Shown here: one piece after another, positions 420 through 14,706 of the stretch | Layout: each line of letters opens with the position of its first letter | How positions within the stretch are numbered: position 1 is the stretch's first letter | NCBI GenBank assembly: GCA_029567505.1 | Contig: JAKPXO010000228.1 | Coordinates: forward strand, 3,376 to 67,375 | Source of the DNA: Acidobacteriota bacterium | GTDB lineage: Bacteria > Acidobacteriota > Thermoanaerobaculia > UBA5066 | DNA length: 64,000 bases | Reading direction: 5' to 3' | Notes under the pieces: model-generated | The model's input: only the letters and a program-made list of their open reading frames with translations | Database searches by the model: none | What the model was told of the DNA's origin: nothing | Program-made: the position numbers and the translations under genes

Positions 420-1374
420 GGTCCTCGGCGCCCGGCGCCGCCTCTCTCCGGCGCAGGCGCAGGAGGATCTCCTCCGACAGCTTCCTGTTGATCGAGATCA
501 GGTCGGCGAGGAGACCCGTCAGGAAAGCCAGGAACGACGTGACGAGGAAGACGGTCGCGAGGAGGAGCGACTGCAGGTGCGCGCCGGGCGTCGGGTCGGT
601 GACGAGGATCCACGCGTAGCGGCCGAAGAGACCGGTCCCGAGGAGAAAGAGGAGGGCGGAGAGGCCGAGGAAGACCGGGAGCGGCTTGTAGAGCGCGGTG
701 ATCCGGAGGATGTTCGCGGCCTGGACGAGGACGTATCGCGACGTGCGGCGGAAGAGGCGCGACGGGCGGACGGGCGGGTTCGTCCCGACGCGGACGGAGG
801 CGACCGCCATCTCCTTGTGCCCCGCCTGGATCAGCGTCTCGACCGTGTAGGTCATTCGTCCGAAGACGTTCAGACGGAGCGCCGCCTCGCGCGTCAGGGC
901 GCGGAAGCCGGACGTGGCGTCGGGCACCTCGGTGCCGGAGGCGCGCCTCACGACCCACGACCCGAACCGCTGCATCCGCCGCTTGCCGGGGGAGAAGTCC
1001 TCCTTCGTCGCCACCCCGCGGTCGCCGACGACGATCTCCGCCTCCCCGCGCAGGATCGGGCCGACGAGGGTCACGACGTCGGCCGCCGCGTACTGCCGGC
1101 CGGCGTCGGTCGAGACGATCACGTCGGCTCCGAGCGCCAGCGCCCTGTCGAGCCCGGCTCGCCAGGCGACCGCGAGCCCGCGATGGATCGGAAGCCGGAG
1201 GACGTGGTCGGCGCCCGCCTCCTTCGCGACGCGCGCCGTCGCGTCGGTCGACCCGTCGTCGACGACGAGCACCTCGACGCGAGCGAAACCGGGGACCTGC
1301 CGGGGGAGCTCGCGGACGGCGGCCGCGATCTGCTCCTCCTCGTCCCAGGCCGGGATCTGGATGACGAGCTTCAC
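400..1374 (-). CDS. Family 2 glycosyltransferase (DPM1/GtrB-like) with two C-terminal TM helices
   Basis: 324 aa. GT2 fold signature VLVVDDGSTD...D.D in the N-terminal domain, C-terminal hydrophobic helices. Its TGA stop at 400-402 lies 15 nt downstream of the next gene's candidate GTG start at 419. Confidence 0.8.
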   Translation of the reverse strand: MKLVIQIPAWDEEEQIAAAVRELPRQVPGFARVEVLVVDDGSTDATARVAKEAGADHVLRLPIHRGLAVAWRAGLDRALALGADVIVSTDAGRQYAAADVVTLVGPILRGEAEIVVGDRGVATKEDFSPGKRRMQRFGSWVVRRASGTEVPDATSGFRALTREAALRLNVFGRMTYTVETLIQAGHKEMAVASVRVGTNPPVRPSRLFRRTSRYVLVQAANILRITALYKPLPVFLGLSALLFLLGTGLFGRYAWILVTDPTPGAHLQSLLLATVFLVTSFLAFLTGLLADLISINRKLSEEILLRLRRREAAPGAEDRDDARG

Positions 1375-1430
1375 GACACCCGAGGATATCCGAAGCCCTG
1401 CGGCGGACGGGGCGCGGCGTTCCGCCTCCG

Positions 1431-1952
1431 ATGCCGATCGACTATGTTCGGGGCATGTCGACGCGCCGCGAGCGCTTCCTCTTCCGGATCATCAACGTCT
1501 ACCCGCCGTATCTCGGCGCGGGGGTGCGAGTCCTGCACCGCGAGGGAGACGAGCGGACCTTCCGCGTCGAGATGCGCCTGCGCCCGTGGAACCGGAACCT
1601 CTTCGGCACGCACTTCGGCGGCTCGCTCTACGCGATGTGCGACCCGTGGTTCTGCTGGCTTCTCGTGCGCCACCTCGGGAGCGCCTACCTCGTCTGGGAC
1701 AAGGCCGCGTCGATCGAGTTCCTCAAGCCGGGCCGCGGTCGCGTCTCGGCGACGTTCCACGTCTCGTCGGAGACGGTCGAGGAGATCCGCGCCGCGGCCG
1801 ACCGGGACGGCAAGACGGAGCCGGTCCTGACCGCGGAGGTCGTCGCCGTTGACGGCGAGGTCGTCGCGCGAGTGACGAAGACGCTCTGGGTGAGGCGCAA
1901 GGACGCGCCGAAGCCTCCGGGGCGGGACGTCCCCGACCCGGGCTCGCCCTGA
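1431..1952 (+). CDS. DUF4442 / hotdog-fold thioesterase-like protein
   Basis: 173 aa. Motifs [14 protein letters not shown]...[20 protein letters not shown] resemble the DUF4442 family. Start could instead be the ATG at 1455. Confidence 0.5.
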
Positions 1953-2005
1953 GGGCGCGTGCGGGCGCGGTTCCCCGGCGAGGCGATCTCGGAGAAGATC
2001 GGTCC

Positions 2006-2671
2006 ATGGCGAAGCTCGCCCCCTCCATCCTCTCCGCCGACTTCGGCCGGCTCGCCGCCCACGCCCGCGAGGCGATCGCGGCCGGCGCCGACTGGCTCCA
2101 CGTGGACGTCATGGACGGGCGGTTCGTCCCGAACCTCACGATCGGCCCGCTCGTCGTCGAGGCGCTCCGCCCGCTGCGCGAGGAGACCGGGGCGCTCCTC
2201 GACGTCCACCTCATGATCGTGGAGCCCGAGCGTTACCTCACCGACTTCGCGAGGGCGGGAGCCGACGTCCTGACGGTCCACGTCGAGGCGTGTCCGCACC
2301 TCCACCGGACGGTGCAGCAGATCCGCGAGCTCGGCGTGAAGGCGGGCGTCACGCTCAACCCCGCGACGCCGCTCTCCGCCCTCGAGGAGATCCTCCCGGA
2401 TGTCGACCAGGTGCTCGTCATGTCGGTCAACCCCGGCTTCGGCGGCCAGTCCTTCATCCCCGGCGCGACCGCACGCGTCCGCCGCCTCCGCGCGATGCTC
2501 GACGGAATCGGGTCGACGGCGGAGCTGGAGATCGACGGCGGCATCAAGCCGGAGAACGCCCGCGAGGTCGTCGACGCCGGAGCCACGGTCCTCGTCGCCG
2601 GCTCCGCCGTGTTCCGGGGAGACGTCGCGGCGAACGTGCGGAGGCTCCGGGAGGCGGCGGGACCGCGGTAG
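2006..2671 (+). CDS. rpe: Ribulose-phosphate 3-epimerase
   Basis: 221 aa. SILSADF...HVDVMDG.FVPN...VHLM...NPGFGGQ.F is a canonical Rpe TIM-barrel signature. Confidence 0.9.
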
Positions 2672-2750
2672 GACGGGAGCCGCGCGCGGACGGTTCCGCC
2701 GACGGCCTCGACGAAGCGGTCTGCCGAGGCGCCCCTCCCCGAAACGCATC

Positions 2751-2775
2751 GGCCGCCCCGCGGTAGAGGGCGGCC
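2751..2775. terminator. GC-rich hairpin between convergent rpe and the outer-membrane gene (putative bidirectional terminator)
   Basis: ggccgccc-cgcggtaga-gggcggcc: 8-bp perfect stem. No clear T-tract. Confidence 0.35.
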
Positions 2776-2805
2776 GGGAAGGGGGCCGGCGGGGCAGACG
2801 GCGGG

Positions 2806-3465
2806 TCAGAAAGAGACGGTGACGCCGAGGCGGGCCTGGGCCTGGAAGAGGCCGCTCGAGCACTCGTCGTCGTGGCATCCGTGGTGGTGGTCGTCCTCGT
2901 CGTCGTCGAACCGCGTGTCGCCGGTGTCGGTCCAGAAGGCGCGCCCCTCGAAGCGGACTCCGATGTTGGCGGAGAGCGGGATCTTCACGCCGCCGCCGAG
3001 ACTCCCGGAGAAGCGCCGGGTGCTGGAGTTGAACCCGTCGCGCGGATCGAGGTTGGCGATTCCCATCGACCCGACGACGAAGGGTTTCACGCGGGCGGTC
3101 GTCCACTGATAGAGCGCGCCGACGTGGTAGTAGTCGATGTCGAGGTCGAACTGGCGGTCGGACGGGCCGAAGAGCGTGCCGCTGTCGAGGCCGGTGCGCT
3201 GGTGGTCGGCGAGGAGCTCGATCTGGAGGTGCTCGGTGACGGGGATGTCGATCACGAGGCCGAGCGAGTGACCTTCCTCGAGGTCGGCGTCGCGATCCAG
3301 CGTGGTCGTTTCCTCGGCCCGGATCTCGCCGCCCCAGCGGAAGCCCACGGTCGGTGTGATCTCGAGGACGGGCTGGGCGTTCGCTCCGAGCGCTCCTCCG
3401 AGCAGAATGATCGCCGCGGCGAGGGTGGCGAGGTTGGAGGTGCGGGTCGGGTTGACCGGTGTCAT
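2806..3465 (-). CDS. Small outer-membrane beta-barrel protein with a His/Asp/Cys-rich C-proximal segment
   Basis: Real start reassigned to ATG at 3465 (MTPVNPTRTSNLATLAAAIILLGGALGANA signal peptide; GGAGGA 8 nt upstream). Alternating beta-strand pattern, C-terminal ...GVTVSF. The 393-aa ORF-track N-terminal extension is discarded as low-complexity. Confidence 0.65.
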   Translation of the reverse strand: MTPVNPTRTSNLATLAAAIILLGGALGANAQPVLEITPTVGFRWGGEIRAEETTTLDRDADLEEGHSLGLVIDIPVTEHLQIELLADHQRTGLDSGTLFGPSDRQFDLDIDYYHVGALYQWTTARVKPFVVGSMGIANLDPRDGFNSSTRRFSGSLGGGVKIPLSANIGVRFEGRAFWTDTGDTRFDDDEDDHHHGCHDDECSSGLFQAQARLGVTVSF

Positions 3466-3583
3466 GGTCGATGGTCCTCCTTGAATCTCTGGGGGCCAGG
3501 GCATGTCGCCCGGCACGGTCCACAAGATCCGCCCTGCGGCCGGCAGACGCTTGACCGAACCGTGATCACCGCGTGACCTCGGC

Positions 3584-4864
3584 GTGAGGAATGCGGACGA
3601 GGCCTCGACGGGCCCGAAAGCCGCGTTCTTCCGGGTTAGCATCCCGGCCGTGAAACGCGGCGCCGGCCCGCATTCCTCCGCTCTCCGCGCATCGCTCCGC
3701 CGTTCCGCGCCGCTGCTCGCGCTCCTCGCCTTCGCCCTGGCGGGGGCGCCCGCGGCCCGCTCGGAGGACGCTCCGCGGCCGTTCGTCCTGACCTTCTCCA
3801 ACCCGGGCGCGCGCAGCCTCGCGTTCGGGGGCGCCTTCGCGCCGCTCGCCGACGACGCCACCGCCGCGTACGCGAACCCGGCGGGGCTCGTGCAGCTGCT
3901 CCGGCCCGAGGTCTCCGTCGAGCTGCGCGTCAGCGGCGCTCTCGAGGACGACGACGCGACCGGGGACCCCACGGTGAAGCGGGCCAACGGGCTCTCGTAC
4001 TTCTCGGCGGTCTACCCGCTGCGGCGGTTCTCGCTCGCCCTCTACGGCCACCAGCTCGCGGGCATCGACATCGAGCCCCCCGGCGAGGAGGGCCCGGAGG
4101 CGGTGGCGCGGACGGCCCGGCGGGCGGCAGCGGGGGAGCGGCTCTCCGGCCTCGACGTCTGGCGCCTCGGCGTCTCTGCGGCGTTCCGGCTGCGCGACGA
4201 CCTCAGCGTCGGCCTCGGCGCGTCGTACTTCGACGGGAACGTGGAGCTGGCCCCGAGCGATGACCCGGACGCCGCAGGGCGGAGCGTTTCCAGCAACGAC
4301 TGGACGCTCAACACCGGGGTGCTCTGGCAGCCCGCGGAGCAGCTCCGGCTGGGGGCTTTCTACCGCCAGGGACCGACGCTCTCGCTCGGGAGGCTCGGCG
4401 CGACGCCCTGCGCGGGACGGGAGTGCGTCGAGGCCTCGCTCCGCCTCCCCGACACCTTCGGCGCCGGCGCCGCGCTGCGGTCGGCCGGCGGCGGGCTCAC
4501 GGTGGCCTTCGAGTGGGACCGGGTCCGCTACTCGAGCCTCGTCGCGGGGCTCTCCGCAGCGGCGCTCGGCGCCGACCGGCTCTCCCTCTCGGACGCGAAC
4601 GAGTTCCACGTGGGCGCCGAGTACGCGTTCCTGCGGCTCGACCCGGTGCTGGCCGTGCGCGTCGGCGGGTGGCTCGACCCCGATCACCGCCTTTGCGGCG
4701 CGGCCGCGGACTCGGCGTACCGATGCGAGACCGATGTCCGCTCGGGCGAGGGGCACGTCACGCTGGGCTTCGGAATGGCGTTCAAGCGCTTCCAGCTCGA
4801 CCTGGCGGTCGACGGCTCTCGCGCCGAGGTGACGACGTCGATCTCCGGGATCTTCAGCTTCTAG
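3584..4864 (+). CDS. FadL/OmpP1/TodX-family outer-membrane hydrophobic-compound transporter
   Basis: 426 aa. N-terminal family motif NPGARSLAFGGAFAPLADDATAAYANPAGLVQL. Signal peptide LLALLAFALAGAPAARS. C-terminal Phe. Confidence 0.7.
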   Translation: MRNADEASTGPKAAFFRVSIPAVKRGAGPHSSALRASLRRSAPLLALLAFALAGAPAARSEDAPRPFVLTFSNPGARSLAFGGAFAPLADDATAAYANPAGLVQLLRPEVSVELRVSGALEDDDATGDPTVKRANGLSYFSAVYPLRRFSLALYGHQLAGIDIEPPGEEGPEAVARTARRAAAGERLSGLDVWRLGVSAAFRLRDDLSVGLGASYFDGNVELAPSDDPDAAGRSVSSNDWTLNTGVLWQPAEQLRLGAFYRQGPTLSLGRLGATPCAGRECVEASLRLPDTFGAGAALRSAGGGLTVAFEWDRVRYSSLVAGLSAAALGADRLSLSDANEFHVGAEYAFLRLDPVLAVRVGGWLDPDHRLCGAAADSAYRCETDVRSGEGHVTLGFGMAFKRFQLDLAVDGSRAEVTTSISGIFSF

Positions 4865-5852
4865 GCCGCGCTGCCGCCGCGAGGTGGCGACCGAGGAACC
4901 AGCTGCCGGGCTCCGGGCGCCCGCCGGCGCCGCTCCGTACGAGGCCCAGCGCGCGAAGGCGGGCGATTCGCTCGGCGACACAGGTCGCGTCGCCCGCCGA
5001 AGGGGAGGCGATTCCGGCGAGAAGCTCGCGATCGGCGTCCCCGAGGAGGCCGAGATCGACGTCGCAGAGGCGTGTCACCGTCGGGTCGCGGGCCAGCCCC
5101 TCGCACGCTTCCTGGGCGTTGCCGAGCTCGATCGCGCGCTTGGCGCCGAGCTGGAGGAGGAACGGATGCCCGCCGCAACGAGTCGTCAGGAGATCGACCG
5201 CGGCTTCGGCGAGGTCGGGCCTCCGCCCCGCGGGTAGGTTCTCCTGCCTCAGGAGGCGGCGCGCCTCCTCGTCCTCCAGGGGTCCGATCCACAGCGGTGC
5301 GCCGAAGGCCGCGAGAAGGCGGTGGTCCGGTCCGCTTGTCGAAGTCCCGGCGAGGCGGACGGAGGAAGCCAGGACGACCCTCGTACCGGACTCGTTCCAC
5401 GCGCTTTCGAGCGATCCGAGCCGCTCCGGGTGGCGCCGCAGGAGGGCGAAGAGGTCCTCGGCCTCGTCACAGAGGAGAAGCAGCCGCCGGCCGTGTCGTC
5501 CGAGCTCCCCGGCGAGGCCGGCGAGCGTCGCCGACGCCGGCCCGGGCTTCGGCAGCCCGACGCCCGTCGCGGCGAGAGCGGGTTCGACGTCGATCAGCGC
5601 CTCGTGGAGGCCGAGGTCCAGCTCGTCCGGCTCGTCCGAGCCCTGGAGGTCCCAGACGACTGGCAGGAAGGGCCCCGGCCTGTCGCCGGCGAGCCGTTCG
5701 ACCTCGCGGAGGAGCGAGGTCTTGCCGACGCGGCGCATCCCGACGAGCCAGAGCCGATCCCGTGGCCCGTGGAGCGCCTCCCGGAGCAGGTCGCTCCGGC
5801 CGTAGAAGCGCTCGCCGCGCACCCACGGGCCGACGACGTACGGGACGTTCAT
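4854..5852 (-). CDS. Stand-alone AAA_16/STAND-like ATPase (third gene of the ATPase cluster)
   Basis: Start reassigned to ATG at 5852 (MNVPYVVGPWVRGERFYGRSDLLREALHGPRDRLWLVGMRRVGKTSLL = Walker A; LLLLCDEAEDL = Walker B). Its ATG overlaps the upstream gene's TGA (ATGA). Confidence 0.7.
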   Translation of the reverse strand: MNVPYVVGPWVRGERFYGRSDLLREALHGPRDRLWLVGMRRVGKTSLLREVERLAGDRPGPFLPVVWDLQGSDEPDELDLGLHEALIDVEPALAATGVGLPKPGPASATLAGLAGELGRHGRRLLLLCDEAEDLFALLRRHPERLGSLESAWNESGTRVVLASSVRLAGTSTSGPDHRLLAAFGAPLWIGPLEDEEARRLLRQENLPAGRRPDLAEAAVDLLTTRCGGHPFLLQLGAKRAIELGNAQEACEGLARDPTVTRLCDVDLGLLGDADRELLAGIASPSAGDATCVAERIARLRALGLVRSGAGGRPEPGSWFLGRHLAAAARPRS

Positions 5853-8248
5853 TCGAGGCCCTCGCCGGCGATCGCCTCCACGTCGGCGAGCGTGATCGTC
5901 CCGCGGCCCTCCTGGTGGAGCCGGCCGACGAGCGCGACGCACGCCTTCTGGATCCGGTACGGCCGGCCGGCGGTGACGTCGACCAGACGCTGGAGGGCCG
6001 CGTCGTCGATGTCGAAGACGCCGTCGATGGGGCGGCGCACGAGCGCCTCGGCGGCCCCGCGGTCGAGCGGCGCGACCTCGAGCTCCTCGAAGAAGTTGTA
6101 CCAGGGCGAGCCGGCGAGCTCCCAGTGCTTCAGGATCCCGACCCCGGAGACGACGGCCACGAGGTGCTCGGAGAAGGCGCGCATGAAGAGGCTTCGAAGC
6201 CTCTGGTTCACCTTCGGGTCGTAGGAGTTGAGCTCGTCGACCTCGTCGATGAGAAGGACGAGCTTCACGCGCTTGACCGTGCGGCGTCCCAGGGATTCGA
6301 GCACGGCTCGCAGGTCGCGGGTGAGCTCGTGGTAGCCGTAGCCGGCGACGCGGCCCGCCTCGGGGGCGACGGCGCCGGGCGGGAGGAGCGGGCCGAGCTC
6401 GTCGAGGATCGCGACCATCAGGGCACCGAAGAAGCGCTCCTCCGGGACCCCCTGGAGGTCGACGAGGACGGGGTGGAACGCGAACTCCGGGTCGTCGAGC
6501 TGCTCGAGCCGGCGCTTGAGGTGGTGGAGGAGCGAGGTCTTGCCGATGCGGCGCTCGCCGTAGAGGAGGAGGCTGTTGTTGGGAATCGTCTGCAGGACCC
6601 GGTCGATGAGCGGCTCGCGTCCGAAGAAGAGACGCTCGTCGAGGACTGGCGCGCCGGCGACGTAGGGATTGAACTTCCGTCGCCGCCGGCGTCGCCTCCG
6701 GAGCCTTCGGCCGGTGACGAAGGCACCCGCCGCGGCGAGCGGGATCGCGGCGAGGAGCGCGAGGGCCCACGGCGAGCGCGCGAAGGGCCGCTCGTAGAGG
6801 ACGACGTACTCGGCGCTTGCCGAGAGGCCCTCCGCGTCGGTGGCGACGACGCGGAGCGTCGTGCGGCCCGGGGCGAGCCGCGACGTCGACGAGAACTCCG
6901 TGAGGACGAAGTCGCCGACGTCCTGGCCCGCGGTGCCGGCGGGAGCACCGGCGTCCGTCCCGACGCCGACGTGGACGCGGACGGCCGACCGGTCGAACAC
7001 CACCCCCGAGAGGCGGAACTCCGGGGCGTCGACGATCTCCGCCCGCGTGCCGTCCGGAAGGGTCTCTCGCTGGTCCGAGAAACGGATGGCCGGAGGGAGG
7101 TTCTGACCGGTGCCCCTGCCGAGGAGCGCGCGGCTGATCTCGCCGTAGGCGCGACGGACGGCGGCGCGGGCCGGCTCGCTCGCAGCGTCGAGGGCGAGGG
7201 CACGGTTCGCGGCGGCAAGCGCCCGTTCGTGGCGCCCCGCGGCGTGCTCGGCGTCCGCTTCGGCGAGGGCGCGCGCCACGGCGTCCCGCTTCGCGTTGGA
7301 GCGGCGATCGGAGAGGAGACGCTCGAGGAGCGCCGCCGCGTCGCGGTTGCCGGGGTCGAGCGCCAGCGCCGGCTGGAGGCGATCGAGCGCCTCGGCGTTG
7401 CGCCCGGTACCGGCCAGCTCGCGGGCCGATGCGAGCGCCTCGTCGACCGCGGCGGCACGCGACCCTCGGGCGGCGTCGAGGGCCGAGAGCATTCCCTCCT
7501 CCGCACGGCGCAGGAGCCCCTCCGGGTCGGCGCCCGGCCGGAGCGAGAGGGCCTGTCTCAGGAGGCTCGCCGCCTCCGCGAAACGCCCGGCGGCCAGGGC
7601 GACACGGGCCGAGGAGACGAGACCCGCGGCGTGCTCGCTCTCCTGCCTCTCGCGCTCGCGGCGGTCGGCGTCCTTTCGGAGCCGGGCCGCCCTCGTGACG
7701 GCTCCAGCGTGCTCGGGAGAGACGGCGAGCGCGCGCGAGAGCGCGTCGAGCGCCTCCGCGGGCTTCCCCTGAGCCTCGAGCGCGTCAGCTTCGCTCAGGG
7801 CCCGCGCGACGATCGCCGCCACCCGCTCCGACTCGCCCTCCTCGGCGCCCGCGCGGGCCTCGTCCGTCAGCTGCCGGTACCGCTTGAGGAGCACGCGGGC
7901 CTCGACGGAGCGCGCGACGGCGCCGAGCCGTTCCTCGGTTTCGAACGCCTGCCGTGCGGCGTCGATCTCTCCGAGGTGGAAGTAGGCGATGCCCAGCCTG
8001 AGGTAGGGGAAGTAGTCGACGACCCGCATGCCGTACGTGCGCTCGCGGACGCCGGAATCGCCCTTCGCTTCGATCGCGCCGTTCAGCTCGGCCACGGCCG
8101 TTCGCCAGTCGCTGGCGGCGAGCGCCTTCTCGGCGCGCGCGTAGTGCTCGTACCAGCGGTCCGCGCGGGCGGGCGCGGCGAGGAGAACGAAGGCGAAGGC
8201 GACGAGGGCCGGCGCGAACGGGCGCGGGCGGGGTGCGCGCGCTCTCAC
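5849..8248 (-). CDS. Signal peptide + extracytoplasmic TPR array + single TM helix + poly-Arg tract + cytoplasmic AAA_16/STAND-like ATPase
   Basis: 799 aa. N-terminal signal peptide (AFAFVLLAAPARA). Six or more TPR-like helical repeats and an Ig-like segment. TM helix ALALLAAIPLAAAGAFVTG followed by RRLRRRRRRRRK. Then FFGREPLIDRVLQ...LLLYGERRIGKTSLL (Walker A) and LVLLIDEVDEL (Walker B). GTG start overlaps the upstream TGA (GTGA). Confidence 0.7.
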   Translation of the reverse strand: MRARAPRPRPFAPALVAFAFVLLAAPARADRWYEHYARAEKALAASDWRTAVAELNGAIEAKGDSGVRERTYGMRVVDYFPYLRLGIAYFHLGEIDAARQAFETEERLGAVARSVEARVLLKRYRQLTDEARAGAEEGESERVAAIVARALSEADALEAQGKPAEALDALSRALAVSPEHAGAVTRAARLRKDADRRERERQESEHAAGLVSSARVALAAGRFAEAASLLRQALSLRPGADPEGLLRRAEEGMLSALDAARGSRAAAVDEALASARELAGTGRNAEALDRLQPALALDPGNRDAAALLERLLSDRRSNAKRDAVARALAEADAEHAAGRHERALAAANRALALDAASEPARAAVRRAYGEISRALLGRGTGQNLPPAIRFSDQRETLPDGTRAEIVDAPEFRLSGVVFDRSAVRVHVGVGTDAGAPAGTAGQDVGDFVLTEFSSTSRLAPGRTTLRVVATDAEGLSASAEYVVLYERPFARSPWALALLAAIPLAAAGAFVTGRRLRRRRRRRRKFNPYVAGAPVLDERLFFGREPLIDRVLQTIPNNSLLLYGERRIGKTSLLHHLKRRLEQLDDPEFAFHPVLVDLQGVPEERFFGALMVAILDELGPLLPPGAVAPEAGRVAGYGYHELTRDLRAVLESLGRRTVKRVKLVLLIDEVDELNSYDPKVNQRLRSLFMRAFSEHLVAVVSGVGILKHWELAGSPWYNFFEELEVAPLDRGAAEALVRRPIDGVFDIDDAALQRLVDVTAGRPYRIQKACVALVGRLHQEGRGTITLADVEAIAGEGLE

Positions 8249-9657
8249 GACCGGGTCACCAGCCAGCGGCGGAAGAAGTGGCTCGCGATCGCGACGGAGC
8301 CGTCCGGCGCGCGACGGAGGAGGCCGAGCCGCTCGAGCTCGAGGAGCCGGCCCGTCGGGCCGGATGTCCGCGCCGCGGCCTCGTCCGCCGCGGCCAGACC
8401 GCGCAGGAGGTCACGGTCCTCCTCGTCGAGGAGCGAGAGGTCGACCGAAAAGAGGCGCCCGAGCGCCGGGTCGTCCTCGAGCTCGGCGATGGCCGCCTCC
8501 GTGTCGCCGCGCTCGAGGACGCGCGCCGCGAGCGCCTGCAGCTGGAACGGGTGGTTCCCGCAGGTCTCGCGGATCCTCTCCACCGTCCTCGCGTCGAACG
8601 CCATCCCGGCGCCGGGGCCCGGGCGGGCCGGGCCGAGCAGGTCGCGCGCCTCGGAGTCGGCGAGCGCGCCGAGGTAGACGGGCGGCGTGAAGCCGTGCAG
8701 GAAAGGCGACGTCTCGCCGTCCGGATCGGCGAGCGCCCAGAGCCGGCGCGAGGCCGCCAGAACGGTGCGGATCCCTTCGCGCGACTGGAGCGCGCGGCGG
8801 AGCTTGCGCAGGATCGCGGGCTCGCGCTCCCGCAGCCGGAGGAGCTCCTCGGCCTCGTCGACGAGGAGCAGCAGCTTGAGTCCCTGGGCGCCGAGCAGAC
8901 GGCGCAGGCGTCCGAGCGACGTGAAGAAGTCGCCGGACGGGACCTCGCCGGGCGCGATCCCCGCGGCCGAGAGGCGCGGAGAGGCGTCGAGGAGCGCTTC
9001 CGCGAGGTCCTCCTCGAGCTCGGCGGCATCCTCGACTCCCTCGAGGTCGAGAACGAGCGGCATGAAGCCGCGCTCCGGTGCGGCGGCCGTCAGGTATTCG
9101 GCCTGTCGGAGGAGCGAGGTCTTGCCCACGGCCCGGGTCCCCACGACCCAGAGCGCGTCGCGCGGGCCGTCGAGGATCTCCGCGAGCTGCGCGTCCCGCC
9201 CGAAGAAACGCTCGGCGCGGACCCACCCCCCGGCAACGAAGGGTCTCGACATGGCGGCGACCGCCGGGCGCGCGTTTGTAGCCGGGTTTCGTTCGGGCGG
9301 CACCGGTGGCGACGCCGCCTTCACCGGGGCGAGCAGGCGATAGCCTCGCTTCGAGATCGTCTCGATGTAGCGTGGCTGGCCGGCCACGTCGCCGAGAGCC
9401 CGCCGGAGCTTCGCGATCGCCCGGGTGATCGCCCACTCGGTGATGAACTCGACCTTCCAGACGCCTTCGACGAGCTGGTCGCGGGAGACGACCTGGCCGG
9501 CCCGGTCGGCCAGGAAGACGAGGACGTCCATGAGCCGCGGCTCGAGCTGCACGCTCGCGCCCGGACGCGAGATCCGATTCTGGTCGGGCTGGACGAGCCA
9601 GCCACCCAGCTCGAGGCTGCCGACCCCGACGGCGGGTCCGCGCTCGGAACTGGCCAT
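8245..9657 (-). CDS. OmpR/CadC-type winged-helix DNA-binding domain fused to an AAA_16/STAND-like ATPase
   Basis: Trans_reg_C-like segment LEPRLMDVLVFLADRAGQVVSRDQLVEGVWKVEFITEWAITRAIAKLRRALGD...YIETISKRGYRLLAPV, then FFGRDAQLAEILDGPRDALWVVGTRAVGKTSLL and LLLLVDEAEEL. Start taken as ATG at 9657 (MASSERG...). The ORF-track start at 9747 is possible. Confidence 0.7.
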   Translation of the reverse strand: MASSERGPAVGVGSLELGGWLVQPDQNRISRPGASVQLEPRLMDVLVFLADRAGQVVSRDQLVEGVWKVEFITEWAITRAIAKLRRALGDVAGQPRYIETISKRGYRLLAPVKAASPPVPPERNPATNARPAVAAMSRPFVAGGWVRAERFFGRDAQLAEILDGPRDALWVVGTRAVGKTSLLRQAEYLTAAAPERGFMPLVLDLEGVEDAAELEEDLAEALLDASPRLSAAGIAPGEVPSGDFFTSLGRLRRLLGAQGLKLLLLVDEAEELLRLREREPAILRKLRRALQSREGIRTVLAASRRLWALADPDGETSPFLHGFTPPVYLGALADSEARDLLGPARPGPGAGMAFDARTVERIRETCGNHPFQLQALAARVLERGDTEAAIAELEDDPALGRLFSVDLSLLDEEDRDLLRGLAAADEAAARTSGPTGRLLELERLGLLRRAPDGSVAIASHFFRRWLVTRS

Positions 9658-9931
9658 CGGTGCCGATTCTAGCGGTGCGGGGAGGAGGCCCTCGGAGGCG
9701 AGGCATCGGTCCCGGCCCGCCGCTCGCGCGGGAGCGAGGCGTTCCATGCGGCCACGCTAGGACACCCACGCGGGGAAAGGGTGACCGATCAGGAACCGAA
9801 CGATGACCCCCGATCACGTCCCGGCGACGGCGACGAGGACGCGGGGCGGCCAAAGGAGGCCGGGAGGCGGAAAATGCGGGCGATTCGGGTCTTCCGGCGC
9901 GGGCCGACCGCCGCATCCGGCGCCCCCCCGC

Positions 9932-9985
9932 TTGACGGCTCCGGGCAGGTCCCCTTATTCTCCGCGGTCCCGGCACGTGTGCCGG
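9932..9985 (+). promoter_or_regulatory. Sigma70-like promoter (TTGACG-18-TATTCT) followed by a perfect palindrome CCGGCACGTGTGCCGG, upstream of the tRNA-Val pair and thrS
   Basis: -35 at 9932-9937 and -10-like at 9956-9961. 16-bp inverted repeat with CACGTG core at 9970-9985 near the predicted start site. Confidence 0.3.
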
Positions 9986-10073
9986 AGCGGGTCTTTTGAG
10001 AATCAGATCCGGGTCGAGGGTGGGGCCGAAGTACCTCTACGAGGTCCCCTGCCGGTAGCCCTGGAAAGCACAT

Positions 10074-10148
<75 letters not shown>

Positions 10149-10170
10149 TCCCGCTTTCCGCTGCGTTCGC

Positions 10171-10246
10171 AGGCGCTTAGCTCAGCCGGTAGAGCACTTC
10201 CTTCACACGGAAGGGGTCAGCGGTTCGAGTCCGCTAGCGCCTACCA
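10171..10246 (+). tRNA. tRNA-Val (anticodon CAC)
   Basis: Same acceptor stem as the first copy. Anticodon loop TTCACAC, T-arm GGTTCGAGTCC, encoded CCA. Confidence 0.85.
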
Positions 10247-10319
10247 TCCCGCTCCATCCCTCCTCCCCAGAATCCGATCTCGAGCTTCCCGCCACCACGA
10301 GATGGAGGAGGTCGTCGCC

Positions 10320-12278
10320 ATGTCCGCCAACGCCGAAAACGTCGTCCGCCTGACCCTTCCCGACGGTTCCGTCCGGGAGGTGACTACGGGCACGACGGGC
10401 GAGGCGGTGGCGGCCTCCATCGGCGCCCGCCTCGCGAAGGACGCCCTCGCCGTCAAGGTCGCCGGGAAGATCCTCGACCTGAAGCGCCCGATCACCGAGT
10501 CGGGGGCGTTCGAGGTGATCACCCCGAAGCACCCCGACGCGCTCGAGGTCTACCGCCACTCGACCGCCCACCTCACCGCCCACGCCGTCAAGCGCCTCTT
10601 CCCGGGCGTGAAGATCGGGATCGGTCCGGCCATCGAGAACGGCTACTACTACGACTTCGACCCGGGCCGGGCCTTCACCCCGGAAGACCTCGAGAGGATC
10701 GAGGCCGAGATGCGGAAGATCGTGGCGGAGAACGCCCCGGTCGAGCGGCTCGAGATGTCGAAGGCCGAGGCCGTGAAGATCTTCGAGGAGCAGGGCGACC
10801 ACCTGAAGGTGGAGATCGTCTCCGGCATCCCCGAGGGCTCGCTCTCCTGCTACCGCCAGGCCGACTTCATCGACCTCTGCCGCGGACCGCACGTCCCCTC
10901 CACCGGGAAGCTCGGCGTCTTCAAGCTGACGCACGCCGCGGGCGCCTACTGGAAGGGCGAAGAGCGGAACCCGATGCTCCAGCGGATCTACGGGGCCGCG
11001 TTCCTCTCCCAGAAGGAGCTGGACGAGCACCTGCTTCGCATGGAGCAGGCCCGGGCCCGCGACCACCGCAAGCTCGGCAAGGAGCTGGGGCTCTACCTCT
11101 TCCACCCGTGGGCGCCGGCCTCGCCGTTCTTCCTCCCGAAGGGGGCGACGGTCTACACCCTCCTCGTCGACTACATGCGGAGCCTCTACCCGAAGTACGG
11201 GTACACCGAGGTCGTGACCCCGCAGGTCTACGACGTGGAGCTCTTCAAGAAGTCGGGGCACTACCAGAACTACCACGAGAACATGTTCTTCACGGTGGCC
11301 GACGAGCGGGAGTACGGCGTCAAGCCGATGAACTGCCCGGGCCACTTCCTGATGTTCTCGCAGCAGGCCTTCTCCTACCGCGACCTCCCGGTGAGGTACG
11401 CCGACTTCGGGCGGCTCCACCGCTACGAGCGGTCGGGCGTGACCCAGGGGCTGACCCGCGTGCGGACCTTCTGCCAGGACGACGCGCACCTCTTCGTCTC
11501 GCTCGAGGAGATGCCGGCGGAGATGGACCGCTTCATCGACCTGATCGACGAGGTCTACGGCGCGTTCGGCTTCACGGACGTGAAGGTCGCGCTCGCGACC
11601 CGCCCCGAGAAGTACATGGGGTCGCTCGAGAACTGGGACCTCGCCGAGAAGGCGCTCGCCGCGGCGTTCGAGCGGCGCGGCCGGGCGTACGAGATCAACG
11701 CCGGGGACGGCGCGTTCTACGGCCCGAAGCTCGACTTCCAGGTCACCGACGCGATCGGGCGCGCCTGGCAGCTCGGGACGCTCCAGGTCGATTTCTCGAA
11801 CCCCGAGCGGTTCGACCTCGAGTACACGGCCGAGGACGGCACCAAGAGGCGGCCGGTGGTCCTTCACCGCGCGGTCCTCGGGTCTCTCGAGCGGTTCTTC
11901 GGGATCCTCGTCGAGCACACCGGGGGCGACTTCCCGCTCTGGCTCTCGCCGGAGCAGGCGCGCGTCATCCCGGTCTCCGACAAGCTCCTCGATTACGCCC
12001 GCTCCGTCGCGGCCGAGCTCCGCGCCGCGGGCCTGCGCGTGACGGTCGACGAGCGGAACGAGAAGCTCGGGGCGAAGATCCGGCACGGCGAGCTCGAGAA
12101 GGTCCCGGCGCTCCTCGTCGTCGGCGAGAAGGAGCGCGAGGCCGGGGCGGTGTCGCTCCGGAAGCGCCACGAGGGGGACCTCGGGTCGCGGAAGCTCGCC
12201 GAGGTCGTCTCCGAGATGAAGCAGGCCGTCGCCGCGCGTGCGGCGACGTGGGGCGCGAAGACGCCCGCCAAGAAGTAA
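10320..12278 (+). CDS. thrS: Threonine--tRNA ligase
   Basis: TGS domain, second 'additional' domain, class II catalytic core and anticodon-binding domain, all with clear ThrRS motifs. Start placed at ATG 10320 (GGAGGAGG 7 nt upstream). The ORF-track ATG at 10302 lies inside that Shine-Dalgarno. Confidence 0.9.
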   Translation: MSANAENVVRLTLPDGSVREVTTGTTGEAVAASIGARLAKDALAVKVAGKILDLKRPITESGAFEVITPKHPDALEVYRHSTAHLTAHAVKRLFPGVKIGIGPAIENGYYYDFDPGRAFTPEDLERIEAEMRKIVAENAPVERLEMSKAEAVKIFEEQGDHLKVEIVSGIPEGSLSCYRQADFIDLCRGPHVPSTGKLGVFKLTHAAGAYWKGEERNPMLQRIYGAAFLSQKELDEHLLRMEQARARDHRKLGKELGLYLFHPWAPASPFFLPKGATVYTLLVDYMRSLYPKYGYTEVVTPQVYDVELFKKSGHYQNYHENMFFTVADEREYGVKPMNCPGHFLMFSQQAFSYRDLPVRYADFGRLHRYERSGVTQGLTRVRTFCQDDAHLFVSLEEMPAEMDRFIDLIDEVYGAFGFTDVKVALATRPEKYMGSLENWDLAEKALAAAFERRGRAYEINAGDGAFYGPKLDFQVTDAIGRAWQLGTLQVDFSNPERFDLEYTAEDGTKRRPVVLHRAVLGSLERFFGILVEHTGGDFPLWLSPEQARVIPVSDKLLDYARSVAAELRAAGLRVTVDERNEKLGAKIRHGELEKVPALLVVGEKEREAGAVSLRKRHEGDLGSRKLAEVVSEMKQAVAARAATWGAKTPAKK

Positions 12279-12308
12279 CGAGTCGTCGCAGCAAAAGGAG
12301 GAAGCGCC

Positions 12309-12857
12309 ATTTTCTTTCGAGGCGGTCCACGGATTCCCCCCCAGAAGAACTCCCCGATCAACGAGTTCATCCTCCGCTATCCCGAAGTGCGCCTGATCGC
12401 CGCGGACGGCGAGCAGCTCGGGGTCGTCACCCCGCAGGACGCGCTCGCGAGGGCGCGCGAGGTGGCCCTCGACGTCGTCGTCATCGCGGAGCAGGCCCAG
12501 CCTCCCGTCTGCAAGATCATGGACTTCGGCAAGTTCACCTTCGAGAAGAAGAAGAAGGAGCACGAGTCGAAGCGGAAGCAGAAGGTGACGCAGGTCAAGG
12601 AGGTCAAGTTCCGCCCGAACATCGACGACCACGACTACGACTTCAAGGTCAAGAACATGATCCGGTTCATCGAGGAGGGCGACAAGGTCAAGGCCACGAT
12701 CCAGTTCCGCGGCCGCGAGATGTCCCGCCTCGAGAACGGGCGGAAGGTCCTCCAGCGCCTCGGCGCGGACCTCGAGGGGAAGGCCCACGCGGAAGGGAAC
12801 CCCGAGATGCTCGGCAACCGGATGCACCTGATCTTCGCGCCCCCGAAGAAGCACTGA
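12309..12857 (+). CDS. infC: Translation initiation factor IF-3, probably initiating at a non-canonical ATT codon
   Basis: The in-frame extension upstream of the ORF-track GTG (12387) encodes ...[24 protein letters not shown], the conserved IF-3 N-terminus. ATT at 12309 sits 7 nt after AAGGAGG (12295-12301). Confidence 0.75.
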
Positions 12858-12951
12858 CCTCCCGCCGGGGGGACCCCGGGACCGCCCCGCGACGCGGGGA
12901 CCCGCAGCCCTCCGGCTCACGAACGATCCACGGAGCAAGGAGACCCGGCCC

Positions 12952-13155
12952 ATGGCCACCCACAAGAGGAAGACCCATCGCGGCGCCGCCAAGCGCTTCA
13001 CCATCACCGCGAGCGGGAAGTTCAAGCGCGGCAACGCGATGAAGCGGCACATCCTGACGAAGAAGGCGTCCAACCGGAAGCGGCAGCTCGCGAAGTCGGG
13101 CCTCGTCGCCAAGGCGGACCAGGCCACCGTCCGGCAGATGCTTCCGTACGCGTGA
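12952..13155 (+). CDS. rpmI: 50S ribosomal protein L35
   Basis: 67 aa, [16 protein letters not shown]... Confidence 0.9.
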
Positions 13156-13176
13156 GAAGGAAGAGGAGATAGGACC

Positions 13177-13539: not shown

Positions 13540-13551
13540 GGCGGGAGCCCG

Positions 13552-14643: not shown

Positions 14644-14706
14644 CCGTGCGCTCTGCGCCCGGGGAACGAGGAAGCCGCGGCCGCGGCTTCCCGGGGAGCT
14701 GACCCG

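Follow-up and report, generated by a model that had tools for sequence, protein, structure and literature searches.

A predicted split transmembrane signalling system of paralogous STAND-like ATPases linked to outer-membrane channel genes

Three linked genes of an uncultured member of the Acidobacteriota, here G1, G2 and G3, appear from their sequences to provide an undescribed route for passing a signal across the inner membrane. With moderate confidence, we infer a system for transmembrane signalling in which an AAA+/STAND-like ATPase, not a histidine kinase or an anti-sigma factor, is the transmitter; in our best reading, this system would control outer-membrane channels for hydrophobic compounds. 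A split envelope-to-DNA pathway had been suggested for this trio (the original prediction), and paralogy, co-occurrence across genomes, topology and the outcome of a PADLOC search all support that suggestion. The case is made much stronger by the linked FadL-family and OMP_b-brl genes and a phased repeat array that co-varies with a G1 helix, as well as by the kinase and ECF sigma outputs found elsewhere and the occurrence of the same module behind classic periplasmic sensor domains.

A coupled trio of paralogous ATPases

The genes lie on one strand of the window, that is, the whole 64-kb stretch of DNA analysed:

8245–9747, minus strand: G1, ORF; winged helix and ATPase
5849–8248, minus strand: G2, ORF; exported TPR-like sensor, transmembrane (TM) helix and ATPase
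4854–5852, minus strand: G3, ORF; bare ATPase, no output domain

Both of the predicted start–stop overlaps were read at the junctions: tcGTGAgag between G1 and G2, in which TGA is the G1 stop and GTG at 8248 the G2 start, and gaATGAacg between G2 and G3, in which TGA is the G2 stop and ATG at 5852 the G3 start. Translation of G1 may instead begin at M31 (nt 9657); among close homologs, both a 470-aa and a 500-aa form have been called. In pairwise comparisons, G1 and G3 share 41% identity across 331 aa (E 1e-58), and G2 shares 28–30% identity with G1 and with G3 over about 275–295 aa (E 1e-13 and 2e-13), bearing out the proposed common ATPase core as opposed to unrelated families. Both Walker motifs, A and B, read as originally quoted. 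A (G/C)(N/G)HPF motif ascribed to the whole trio is present in G1 (CGNHPF) and G3 (CGGHPF) but not in G2, which has AGRPYR instead. The additions to the core differ as described: a CadC/ToxR-like winged helix in G1, a signal peptide, TPR-like region, Ig-like domain and TM helix in G2, and none in G3.

Scanning of the whole proteins revealed no hydrophobic segment in G1 or G3 and exactly two in G2 (aa 8–30 and 489–514). G1 and G3 are cytoplasmic paralogs, termed c-type here, that share an architecture of ATPase, helical domain and winged helix, whereas the membrane-type (m-type) ATPase of G2 has no winged-helix domain and no STAND-type sensor-1 Arg, both of which are retained in G1 and G3 (at the sensor, VVSGV compared with hhhSSxR). 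The parts of G1 are as follows:

9334–9558, minus strand: OmpR-type winged helix, CadC/ToxR-like, aa 64–138 (Pfam, NCBIfam, profile and Foldseek)
8248–9252, minus strand: c-type ATPase, helical domain and C-terminal winged helix, aa 166–500

A flexible linker joins the N-terminal winged helix to the ATPase part. The Pfam match to Trans_reg_C reaches 65 bits (cut-off 26.2), the match to nSTAND1 36 bits (cut-off 27.1), and AAA_22 likewise exceeds its cut-off. G1 matches the NCBIfam CadC N terminus (E 7e-30), and the G1-family profile matches CadC 5ju7 (E 8e-34). Foldseek searches with the AlphaFold2 (AF2) model (pLDDT 81) returned CadC (TM 0.88, 44% identity) and ToxR–DNA complexes, together with the archaeal ATPases 2qen and 2fna (E 1e-10) and the MalT structure 8bob. 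On this evidence, G1 is predicted to be a cytoplasmic transcription factor. The ATPase of G3 matches Pfam only below threshold (AAA_22 23.8, nSTAND1 20.8); its Walker A (GMRRVGKTS) and Walker B (LLLLCDEAED) motifs are intact, followed by the helical domain and winged helix of the c-type architecture.

G2 is a predicted membrane-anchored sensor

The segments of G2, N terminus first, are as follows:

8162–8248, minus strand: signal peptide
7121–8161, minus strand: TPR-like helical ectodomain
6788–7096, minus strand: Ig-like β-sandwich
6710–6769, minus strand: TM helix
6674–6709, minus strand: Arg tract
5852–6628, minus strand: m-type ATPase and lid, without winged helix

TPR_1, TPR_2 and TPR_14 exceed their Pfam cut-offs, as does AAA_16 (32.9 bits; cut-off 32.6). 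The TM helix is followed by RRLRRRRRRRRK; the stop-transfer tract of the original prediction is present, although as 10 Arg in 12 residues and not as a pure R10. All 18 G2 homologs checked have the TM segment and a visible Arg-rich tract (A1 alignment), with 6–10 Lys/Arg per 20 residues in the 15 for which the scan window lies just past the TM segment. An A-x-A-like cleavage site followed by an invariant WY.H motif is found across the family. By these sequence features, the TPR region is assigned to the extracytoplasmic side in all of the homologs examined, in agreement with the predicted topology.

In the AlphaFold2 model of G2 (pLDDT 76, pTM 0.37; low confidence at aa 521–569 and 703–725), residues 31–375 form approximately seven helical hairpins, several with unusually long helices, followed by the β-sandwich (387–485), the TM helix (493–523) and the ATPase with its helical lid. 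Superposition of the sandwich with the C-terminal, Ig-like domain of sulfite dehydrogenase gives 2.3 Å over 121 columns. Conservation of the ectodomain peaks at the membrane-distal N-terminal tip (WYEHY, GDSG.R.R.YGM, YFPY..LGIAY and TEERLG). G2 is probably best described, from sequence and model, as a single-pass membrane sensor with a periplasmic ectodomain, its sensing role being inferred.

The absence of the winged helix and sensor-1 Arg would also fit a non-productive, capping partner, and G2 could conceivably be an anti-activator anchored in the membrane, where it would retain G1 (and G3) by ATPase–ATPase contact until a signal releases them, by analogy with the restraint of MalT by MalK or of a sigma factor by its anti-sigma factor. 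The linkage, topology and cis-element evidence fits that arrangement equally, and small soluble m-type ATPases that precede G1 in other loci could be dedicated inhibitors. Sequences do not tell sequestration from activation; however, the ATPase motifs GERRIGKTS and LLIDEVDE are invariant throughout the G2 family, which favours an active nucleotide cycle over a passive tether, and we regard the anti-activator as possible but unlikely.

Conservation, linkage and alternative outputs

A search of 185,579 species-representative genomes gave 317 stretches matching the G2 family, mainly in Acidobacteriota, with Woeseiaceae in addition; conservation is full length at about 800 aa, with approximately 50% identity across Acidobacteriota classes. 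The comparison took in about 90 related loci, every one of them from a MAG or a metagenomic contig; 46 are well flanked, with 5 kb or more to either side. Of these 46, 45 have one or more c-type paralogs and 42 have a FadL homolog, in 41 cases within 5 kb. The exact G2/G3/G1 trio occurs in 9 of the 46 and is only one among several arrangements of a modular system. The same gene set was recovered when three G1 homologs served as the starting point, and the expected co-occurrence is thus seen in many genomes from either end. The 4-nt overlap of G2 with the downstream c-type gene is kept in L001–L003, the three loci with called gene coordinates. OMP_b-brl homologs also occur in related loci (called as OMP_b-brl/OmpW in L002 and L086). 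A TIR gene is inserted within one related locus.

The outputs carried by c-type modules vary. Members of the G3-type family either are bare, at about 330 aa, or carry a fused Trans_reg_C, ECF sigma or Pkinase domain, and across c-type modules in general Pkinase plus ECF sigma is also found; where partner c-type modules carry any output, it is a signalling domain only. Pairing of m-type with c-type ATPases recurs, in that a small soluble m-type ATPase precedes G1 where a kinase fusion is the partner of G2, and we count this in favour of the signalling reading. The m-type module likewise occurs behind Reg_prop/Y_Y_Y domains, classic sensor domains of two-component systems, with a TM helix 20–30 aa upstream and c-type paralogs adjoining, and these versions occur in loci without a FadL gene. 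A more distant 716-aa class with TPR and Big_7 domains has a FadL gene on one side and a c-type-kinase gene on the other, and one relative of the m-type module bears a CHAT protease domain.

These observations bear on two further explanations. G2 and G3 might form an ATP-driven, periplasm-spanning TPR envelope machine that assists assembly of FadL/OMP_b-brl barrels or passes on hydrophobic cargo from them, with G1 merely a local regulator. The linkage to FadL is very tight and at times operonic, and the long helical rod, best conserved at its far tip, could reach the outer membrane. Yet the partners bear DNA-binding, kinase and sigma outputs, the same ATPase serves FadL-less Reg_prop/Y_Y_Y loci and one TM helix offers no transport path, and we find this account improbable. 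The other is an nSTAND1-type anti-phage or conflict system in which G2 would detect invasion at the envelope and oligomerization of the paralogs would trigger a response. The above-threshold nSTAND1 match of G1 is relevant here, the family having been defined in predicted counter-invader (conflict) systems, as are weak, sub-threshold matches to Avs1b, the CHAT-bearing relative and the TIR gene. Against this stand the transcription factor and kinase outputs, the conserved linkage to genes for outer-membrane channels, together with the matched promoter elements of these genes, and full-length conservation across classes of one phylum amid housekeeping genes, which make up the flanks of the window. 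No defence model was significant in the PADLOC search (best E 0.0014, 14 bits), consistent with the original ranking of defence below signalling, and no toxic effector domain was found in any of the approximately 90 loci; we give a defence role very little credence.

A phased repeat array upstream of the channel genes

Signalling, the reading that we prefer, has a plausible endpoint beside the trio:

3584–4864, plus strand: FadL/TodX-family channel gene, predicted target (Pfam Toluene_X)
2806–3465, minus strand: OMP_b-brl small outer-membrane β-barrel gene (Pfam OMP_b-brl)
3551–3589, plus strand: repeat array, predicted G1 binding site (no binding data); four direct repeats in exact 11-bp phase

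The FadL-family gene (32.4 bits; cut-off 29.7), which probably starts at GTG 3650, converges on G3 with an 11-bp overlap and encodes a product with a C-terminal Phe; the 64-kb window holds no further FadL homolog. The OMP_b-brl gene (33.4 bits; cut-off 28.7) diverges from it, and is probably a second regulatory target. In their common intergenic region lies the array, TTGACC gaacc GTGATC accgc GTGACC tcggc GTGAGG, which points towards the FadL gene and ends about 60 nt ahead of its likely start. The pattern is unique in the 64-kb window (0.01 chance matches expected, the pattern having been chosen post hoc) and is conserved in relatives.

Among 60 loci, 22 have an equivalent array upstream of FadL; such arrays consist of three to five TGAGG or TGAYC direct repeats, spaced at exactly 11 bp. 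A search of 1.46 Mb of related loci for three copies of TGA[GCT][GC]-N6 gave 57 matches, corresponding to about 40 sites, 31 of them at the 5′ end of a FadL gene and in the same orientation as the gene. The wHTH gene is present in 20 of the 22 array-bearing loci, the other two being cut contigs, and arrays are absent from 16 of 18 loci without it (Fisher p = 0.0085). A strict array upstream of FadL is missing in 22 wHTH-bearing loci, mainly from Woeseiaceae and of the G2-G3-G1>FadL< type, some of which have variant or relocated arrays instead: in L049 and L067 the array sits just after G3 and before G1, directed back at G3, and in the related L003 an OMP_b-brl gene sits between G3 and G1. The recognition helix of G1 co-varies with the repeat, TEWAITRAIAKLR accompanying TGACC/TGATC and TESV[IL]TR[AS]IAGLR accompanying TGAGG. 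In ECF-fusion loci, a different bipartite motif lies upstream of FadL; all four of its occurrences across all loci are there. Although linkage, array and co-variation can be read from the sequences, binding of G1 to the array and the direction of regulation are inferred: G1 probably activates the neighbouring FadL-family gene.

In many loci the last repeat lies about 10–14 nt upstream of a TAnGAT-like −10 element, at near-constant spacing, whereas here about 45 nt separate the last repeat from the only −10-like element (TAGCAT, 3637–3642); the core promoter is not assignable in the window's own lineage.

Proposed mechanism

We propose that G2 would be exported through its signal peptide and held by its one TM helix, with the TPR-like rod and Ig-like domain in the periplasm and the m-type ATPase just beneath the membrane. 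A periplasmic cue, whose nature is inferred only and which probably has to do with hydrophobic substrates or with the channels of the outer membrane, would alter the state of this ATPase, which may then engage the c-type modules in a nucleotide-dependent hetero-oligomer. Such contact has no support beyond paralogy, adjacency and translational coupling. The hetero-oligomer would promote head-to-tail oligomerization of G1 on the three to five phased repeats upstream of the FadL-family and OMP_b-brl genes and thereby activate transcription in the manner of SARP/PhoB-type winged helices. G3, translationally coupled to G2, would be a partner without an output domain and would probably serve to modulate or cap the assembly, its position being taken in other genomes by a putative kinase and/or ECF sigma output.

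Relation to known systems

AfsR/SARP-STAND regulators of Streptomyces carry an OmpR-type winged helix N-terminal to a STAND-like P-loop NTPase, an order that G1 shares; SARPs bind direct repeats one helical turn (11 nt) apart that adjoin or overlap the −35 region, and AfsR is fed by a Ser/Thr kinase. Unlike AfsR, the G1 chain has neither a BTAD domain nor a TPR sensor, its winged helix is CadC/ToxR-like and not SARP-like, and the sensor resides on a separate exported, membrane-anchored paralog, G2. MalT of E. coli is a signal- and ATP-dependent oligomerizing STAND activator that acts at repeated sites and is restrained by the membrane-associated ATPase MalK. It combines, however, a LuxR-type HTH and a sensor domain of its own in a single cytoplasmic chain, and MalK is an ABC ATPase unrelated to it, whereas in the present system the partner at the membrane is paralogous to the ATPase of the regulator itself. 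The DNA-binding domain of G1 is most closely related to those of CadC and ToxR (of ToxR/ToxS), which couple periplasmic sensing to direct-repeat binding, ToxR controlling outer-membrane porin genes; they place winged helix, TM helix and periplasmic sensor on one polypeptide without an ATPase, whereas G1 has an ATPase module and no TM segment.

FecA–FecR–FecI cell-surface signalling and kinase-controlled ECF sigmas of the ECF43 type (PMC7826278, PMC13147305) offer two further parallels. The former likewise links the gene for an outer-membrane protein with a sensor that crosses the inner membrane once and with a cytoplasmic transcription factor, but the present locus has no FecR/anti-sigma domain and no TonB-dependent transducer, and its FadL homolog lacks an N-terminal signalling extension; the latter recalls the related loci with Ser/Thr kinase and ECF sigma outputs. 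The main text of the ECF re-classification paper mentions neither ATPase nor FadL. Hybrid two-component sensors with Reg_prop/Y_Y_Y domains share their periplasmic domains and TM helix with relatives of the G2 ATPase, but here the transmitter is an AAA+/STAND-like ATPase in place of HisKA/HATPase_c and the partner a paralogous ATPase in place of a receiver domain. The best structural matches to the ATPase, lid and winged helix of G1 are archaeal ATPase_2 proteins PAB2304 (2qen) and SSO1545 (2fna) and ORC/Cdc6 (E 1e-10 to 1e-7), which are soluble single proteins, either without known function or involved in replication, and have neither an OmpR-type domain nor a membrane partner.

The coupled ATPase genes and their outer-membrane neighbours

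The system comprises three linked minus-strand ATPase genes (G1, G2 and G3) beside two outer-membrane genes, its presumed targets, with a phased repeat array upstream of one of them:

8245-9747, minus strand: G1, winged-helix (wHTH) ATPase, 500 aa (470 aa if the start is M31 at 9657)
5849-8248, minus strand: G2, exported TPR/membrane ATPase, 799 aa, GTG start
4854-5852, minus strand: G3, bare ATPase, 332 aa
3584-4864, plus strand: FadL homolog
2806-3465, minus strand: OMP_b-brl gene
3551-3589: array of phased direct repeats

Gene starts are approximate and the maps were built on stop-to-stop ORFs. At both junctions the stop and the next start share 4 nt (tcGTGAgag for G1/G2 and gaATGAacg for G2/G3), and the G+C content of the region (73-74%) is that of the remainder of the window. 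The FadL gene, the only FadL homolog within the 64-kb window, converges on G3, and the OMP_b-brl gene diverges from it. The 3' ends of G3 and the FadL gene overlap by 11 bp (4854-4864), leaving no space for a terminator hairpin between them. The FadL homolog scores 32.4 bits against the Pfam Toluene_X model (cut-off, 29.7), and the homologs of other loci are unmarked Toluene_X matches. The known lateral-gate channels through which hydrophobic molecules pass belong to the FadL and OmpW families.

As the original prediction held, the three ATPases are paralogous: in BLASTP comparisons, G1 and G3 share 41% identity across the whole ATPase and C-terminal part (E = 1e-58), and G2 is 28-30% identical to each across the ATPase (E ~1e-13). 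We coined the names c-type for the G1/G3 kind and m-type for the G2 kind. All three have the P-loop motifs by which STAND NTPases (Leipe et al. 2004) are recognised, GK[TS] for Walker A and hhhhD[DE] for Walker B (GTRAVGKTS and LLLLVDEAEE in G1; GERRIGKTS and LVLLIDEVDE in G2; GMRRVGKTS and LLLLCDEAED in G3), and these are invariant in family alignments. After Walker B, G1 and G3 have a STAND-like hhhSSxR strand; G2 has VVSGV at the same place.

Domain content, predicted folds and topology

Pfam assigns Trans_reg_C (65 bits; cut-off, 26.2) and nSTAND1 (36 bits; cut-off, 27.1) to G1. In G2, several TPR models and AAA_16 are above threshold and the STAND models nSTAND6 (17.9) and NACHT (17.0) are both under cut-off, and G3 has ATPase matches only, all sub-threshold (nSTAND1, 20.8 versus 27.1). 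ATPase_2 and AAA_16/22 score similarly to the STAND models. The winged helix of G1 is of the OmpR/PhoB type and is nearest to CadC (NCBIfam, E = 7e-30; PDB profile search, E = 8e-34), with matches also to ToxR and with Foldseek TM scores of 0.85-0.88 to the DNA-binding domains of both.

The G1 model (pLDDT 81) is ordered as winged helix, disordered linker (aa 116-148), ATPase (150-345), helical domain (356-423) and C-terminal winged helix (435-469), with the archaeal ATPase_2 structures 2qen and 2fna, CadC, ToxR-DNA complexes and ORC/Cdc6 as its top structural neighbours and plant NLRs, CED-4 and MalT slightly weaker. The AlphaFold2 model of G2 (pLDDT 76, pTM 0.37) has about seven helical hairpins in aa 31-375, including three whose helices run to 35-45 residues, a beta sandwich at 387-485 that resembles the Ig-like C-terminal domain of sulfite dehydrogenase (Foldseek, rmsd 2.3 Å), a transmembrane helix at 493-523 and an ATPase that resembles ORC/Cdc6 and TnsC. 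For neither the G2 ATPase nor the FadL homolog did PDB sequence searches find a relative of solved structure.

G2 contains only two hydrophobic segments (aa 8-30 and 489-514), and G1 and G3 contain none. The first ends in an A-x-A-like site followed by an invariant WY.H motif; the second is followed by RRLRRRRRRRRK. The transmembrane segment is kept in 18 of 18 diverse G2 homologs and an Arg-rich tract is visible in the alignment of all 18, with 6-10 Lys/Arg per 20 residues in the 15 whose scripted tail window falls just after the segment. The positive-inside rule and the signal-peptide pattern are established guides to membrane topology, and from them the TPR region of G2 is predicted to be periplasmic and its ATPase cytoplasmic, in agreement with the exported TPR sensor and single transmembrane helix proposed originally.

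The STAND order of nucleotide-binding domain (NBD), helical domain and winged helix is thus present in the G1 model, and G3 aligns throughout; G2 lacks the STAND winged helix and has a four-helix lid alone after its NBD. C-terminal sensor repeats (TPR, WD40 or LRR) on the same cytoplasmic chain are absent, G1 and G3 ending after the winged helix, and the TPR region is N-terminal in G2, across the transmembrane helix from the NBD, unlike the STAND layout. Pfam, hydropathy and the models together bear out DNA-binding, membrane-TPR and bare variants with modules split across genes. Pfam scans detected no HisKA, HATPase_c or Response_reg domain in G1-G3 and, at E values up to 1, no BTAD domain in G1, such as follows the winged helix in the SARP regulators AfsR and ActII-ORF4. 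G1 also lacks the transmembrane helix and periplasmic sensor that ToxR/CadC-like regulators have on the winged-helix chain: none of its 19-mers exceeds 0.95 on the Kyte-Doolittle scale.

G1 alone is similar to AfsR-type regulators, but without BTAD and TPR; the logic is similar to that of MalT with membrane control by MalK, and to that of ToxR/CadC and Fec-type surface signalling. Every defining feature of the AfsR, MalT, ToxR/CadC and Fec families that is testable here is missing.

Conserved linkage to FadL genes with interchangeable outputs

The G2 family (around 800 aa) is conserved full-length at about 50% identity in members from Holophagales, Thermoanaerobaculia and Vicinamibacteria, labelled in the sources only 'AAA family ATPase' or 'TPR repeat protein'. 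The G1 family exceeds 1,100 members, labelled 'winged helix-turn-helix domain-containing protein', and the G3 family has bare 'hypothetical proteins' of about 330 aa. Scanning one genome per species for G2 gave 317 matching stretches, of which 80 loci were kept, all from metagenome-assembled genomes (MAGs) and mostly Acidobacteriota, the exceptions being about a dozen Gammaproteobacteria/Woeseiaceae and one Binatia MAG. The nearest genome loci to the window (85-89% identity) are from uncultured Holophagales or Thermoanaerobaculia. All relatives are MAGs or metagenomic contigs.

In the first three loci inspected, a c-type gene overlaps G2 by 4 nt and a Toluene_X (FadL/TodX) gene and an OMP_b-brl gene lie beside G2 in every case, with a wHTH-ATPase gene in two of the three. 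We then combined a BLAST-based map of 84 loci with all-against-all ORF clustering. In this unbiased clustering, nothing but the ATPases and FadL is present in more than 40 loci; other conserved neighbours were rejected, the remaining clusters being lineage-specific synteny or shadow ORFs. Among 46 well-flanked, species-level loci (at least 5 kb on both sides), 45 have at least one c-type paralog, so that the expected co-occurrence in other genomes is found, and 42 have a FadL homolog, within 5 kb in 41. The conservation of the trio as such holds only in part: bare and wHTH ATPases do accompany G2 elsewhere, but the set seen in the window occurs in just 9 of the 46 loci, as one arrangement among several.

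Output genes of the c-type ATPases in 46 well-flanked loci
wHTH only: 14
bare + wHTH (trio as in the window): 9
kinase fusion only: 8
kinase fusion + wHTH: 6
ECF fusion + kinase fusion: 3
kinase-ECF double fusion: 2
bare only: 2
bare + kinase: 1
none: 1

The Pkinase and Sigma70_ECF domains sit C-terminal to the c-type ATPase (Pfam, E = 1e-46 to 1e-55), and the sole fusions in a search of the G3 family are Trans_reg_C, ECF sigma and Pkinase. Three G1 homologs on long contigs, used as starting points, recovered the identical gene set. In the loci that pair G2 with a kinase fusion, G1 comes after a small soluble m-type ATPase (about 200-236 aa) bearing the G2-specific SPWYNFFEE motif, so that each c-type gene in these loci directly follows an m-type gene; in Woeseiaceae and in G2-FadL-G1 arrangements, other genes separate the two types. 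In the three loci with separate ECF-fusion and kinase-fusion genes, FadL is directly next on the same strand.

A role in defence, which the original prediction had kept as the less likely option, draws on the fact that nSTAND1, the model matched by G1, was defined in predicted conflict systems (PMC8195603). Against PADLOC-DB 2.0, G1 had no matches, and the best matches of G2 (Avs1b, E = 0.0014, 14 bits over 80 aa) and G3 (IetA, E = 0.065) were not significant; no toxin-like domain was found in any related locus. On these grounds we rejected defence as the main reading in favour of signalling.

Several individual loci carry insertions or additional genes. A DDE_3 transposase gene lies between the G3 homolog and the FadL gene of a Holophagales MAG (L001, 11524-12609), the remaining arrangement being intact. 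Between the OMP_b-brl gene and the G1 homolog of L087 (5518-8706), a TIR_2 gene and two unannotated genes lie on the opposite strand, which looks like a small defence cassette inside a signalling locus. A bacterial ubiquitin-like conjugation cluster (zf-B_box, YukD, ThiF E1-like, JAB, FHA, Prok-RING and UQ_con E2-like) is located directly upstream of the G2 homolog in L003 (1649-7757; same contig as L033), with a reverse-oriented repeat array in the gap between cluster and G2. In the G1-G2 gap of a Woeseiaceae locus (L016, 8216-9856, plus strand), directly upstream of G2, is a gene for a 546-aa DUF5666 and DUF2807 (adhesin-head-like) protein, to which an ORF family recurring in eight loci is related. 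Kinase-type loci can also contain an 861-aa Beta-lactamase-family protein, possibly an esterase, between two FadL genes that both bear repeat arrays (L002, 13813-16398; L086, 3335-5920; L088, 4041-6626), which fits a theme of hydrophobic-substrate use.

A phased repeat array that varies with the recognition helix

A conserved block came to light when the OMP_b-brl/FadL intergenic regions of close relatives were aligned. In the window (3551-3589) it reads TTGACC gaacc GTGATC accgc GTGACC tcggc GTGAGG, four hexamers set exactly 11 bp apart. Nowhere else in the 64 kb does the pattern occur (expected matches, 0.06 with two repeats and 0.01 with three), and the three occurrences of a relaxed two-repeat pattern all fall within the array. 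These statistics are post hoc because the pattern was derived from this very site; the cross-locus tests, unlike them, are not.

When the upstream regions of all FadL homologs were searched blind for phased hexamers, TGAGG arrays of 11-bp period emerged in many distant loci. Across 1.46 Mb of loci, the pattern TGA[GCT][GC]-N6, three times repeated, has 57 matches at about 40 sites, of which 31 are co-oriented with a FadL gene and situated at its 5' end and two lie upstream of G1 in Woeseiaceae. The other seven are found just past the stop of G2 or G3, facing back into the operon, or else upstream of G2. In many loci a TAnGAT-like hexamer follows the last repeat at a near-constant distance of about 10-14 nt downstream, the same geometry as in PhoB and SARP activators, which stand in for the -35 element. 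Of the 60 loci whose FadL upstream region was usable, 22 have arrays; 20 of these 22 have the wHTH gene and the contigs of the other two are cut on that side, and 16 of 18 loci without a wHTH gene have no array (Fisher p = 0.0085). In four of five kinase-ECF double-fusion loci, the array is replaced upstream of FadL by a bipartite motif, GGGT[AG]TTG[AG]G-N13/14-CTGCCAG, found nowhere else in the data. In the kinase-ECF fusion loci L025, L040, L056 and L082, this ECF-like motif is preceded at a distance of 20-30 nt by a GC-rich inverted repeat (for example, CCACCCCGCGGGGTGG).

The recognition helix of the window and its relatives, TEWAITRAIAKLR, pairs with TGACC/TGATC repeats, and the helix TESV[IL]TR[AS]IAGLR pairs with TGAGG repeats. 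Judged from these sequences, the repeat variant tracks the recognition helix of G1, which is the most telling of the cis-element evidence for a putative operator. Woeseiaceae loci L018 and L054 have TGATG arrays upstream of G1; a divergent helix, TEYTLNRCIYRLR, comes from L039 and L042, a different pair of Woeseiaceae loci. Autoregulation of G1 in the window was rejected, the repeat motif being absent upstream of G1.

A wider class of membrane ATPases

An exhaustive search with the ATPase part of G2 gave 6,641 cluster representatives at E values up to 1e-3 and 339 at values up to 1e-30. The m-type module is mostly C-terminal, in proteins of widely differing length. The N-terminal parts of the proteins sampled include Reg_prop beta-propellers, most with Y_Y_Y (classic periplasmic sensors of hybrid two-component systems), and also TPR with Big_7, CarboxypepD_reg and, once, CHAT with TPR. 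By comparison of hydropathy segments with Pfam coordinates, a hydrophobic helix precedes the ATPase by 20-30 aa in most sampled m-type proteins. Behind one Reg_prop/Y_Y_Y member comes a c-type ATPase (38% identity to that of G1) with a coiled-coil tail, among LysM and polysaccharide genes; at a second locus, two Reg_prop/Y_Y_Y sensors flank one c-type gene; and a 716-aa TPR and Big_7 member is located between a FadL gene and a c-type-kinase gene. The CHAT-bearing relative, P0443 (1481 aa), contains a CHAT protease, TPR and HEAT repeats and has no transmembrane helix adjoining the ATPase, its sole hydrophobic segment being aa 664-684; its architecture is conflict-system-like within the wider m-type family.

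A proposed envelope-to-DNA relay

Paralogy, domain content, the export and anchor signals and translational coupling are established directly, at the level of sequence, as are the conserved outer-membrane channel linkage, the signalling-only outputs and an operator-like array whose sequence changes with that of the DNA-binding helix. We consider it likely that the locus encodes a signalling system that acts through G1 to regulate the outer-membrane genes beside it. We propose that G1 would bind the array as a head-to-tail oligomer, activating the FadL gene and probably the OMP_b-brl gene; that the m-type ATPase of G2 would contact c-type modules and thereby control the action of G1; that G3 may modulate assembly; and that the cue may have to do with hydrophobic substrates or with outer-membrane state. 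The specific mechanism of an activating hetero-oligomer remains tentative, with more doubt than support attached to it. As a whole, this account is the explanation we favour, with some reserve.

The broader proposal, which we regard as a serious possibility falling slightly short of an even balance, is of a widespread, undescribed transmembrane class in which a periplasmic sensor (TPR and Ig, Reg_prop/Y_Y_Y or others), a transmembrane helix and an m-type ATPase would relay to c-type ATPases by nucleotide-dependent hetero-oligomerization, with interchangeable outputs (OmpR-type winged helix, Ser/Thr kinase or ECF sigma). The parts are of known kinds: an OmpR-type winged helix, a STAND/ATPase_2-like NTPase and TPR. 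We place the novelty in STAND-type signalling whose modules are distributed over several genes, which crosses the membrane and which, as proposed, passes from one paralogous ATPase to another. The arrangement had not been recognised as a described system, and the literature that we searched likewise held no published description; coverage was incomplete and an earlier description is not excluded.

If the proposal is true, it would constitute a separate membrane-crossing route beside two-component, ECF/anti-sigma and Hanks-kinase signalling, and confirmation of the relay would earn it the name of a separate transmembrane signalling class. Oligomerization of STAND-like ATPases, known from cytoplasmic regulators and immune receptors, would have been adapted to signal transfer at the inner membrane, and thousands of proteins labelled 'AAA family ATPase', 'TPR repeat protein', wHTH protein or 'hypothetical' would gain a function. 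Acidobacteriota are among the most abundant bacteria of soil and sediment, and knowledge of their environmental sensing is very limited; the proposal would provide a concrete circuit of sensor, relay, DNA site and target for hydrophobic-compound uptake channels in uncultured lineages. The predicted phased TGAGG/TGAYC operator and its co-variation with the helix would make the DNA-binding step testable in vitro with synthetic genes.

Flanking genes and regulatory signals in the window

Scanning positions 2700-10300 for promoters and terminators yielded only a sigma-70-like site and chance-level terminators, and left the G1 operon and the FadL gene of the window lineage without an assignable promoter. 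The sigma-70-like match, the sole one in the region (9932-9961, plus strand), precedes two tRNA-Val genes (anticodons GAC and CAC; 10074-10148 and 10171-10246, plus strand) just upstream of G1 on the opposite strand; a search of positions 1-12000 against Rfam found these two tRNAs and nothing else. A mobile island at tRNA-Val was considered and rejected in view of the flat GC content, the housekeeping flanks and the lack of a tRNA beside the system in related loci. On the other side of the system are ordinary flank genes:

400-1374, minus strand: family-2 glycosyltransferase
1431-1952, plus strand: DUF4442 thioesterase-like protein
2006-2671, plus strand: ribulose-phosphate 3-epimerase

Two long minus-strand ORFs, at 10203-13190 (995 aa) and 12688-16638 (1316 aa), have no Pfam match and may be spurious, given DNA of 70% G+C.
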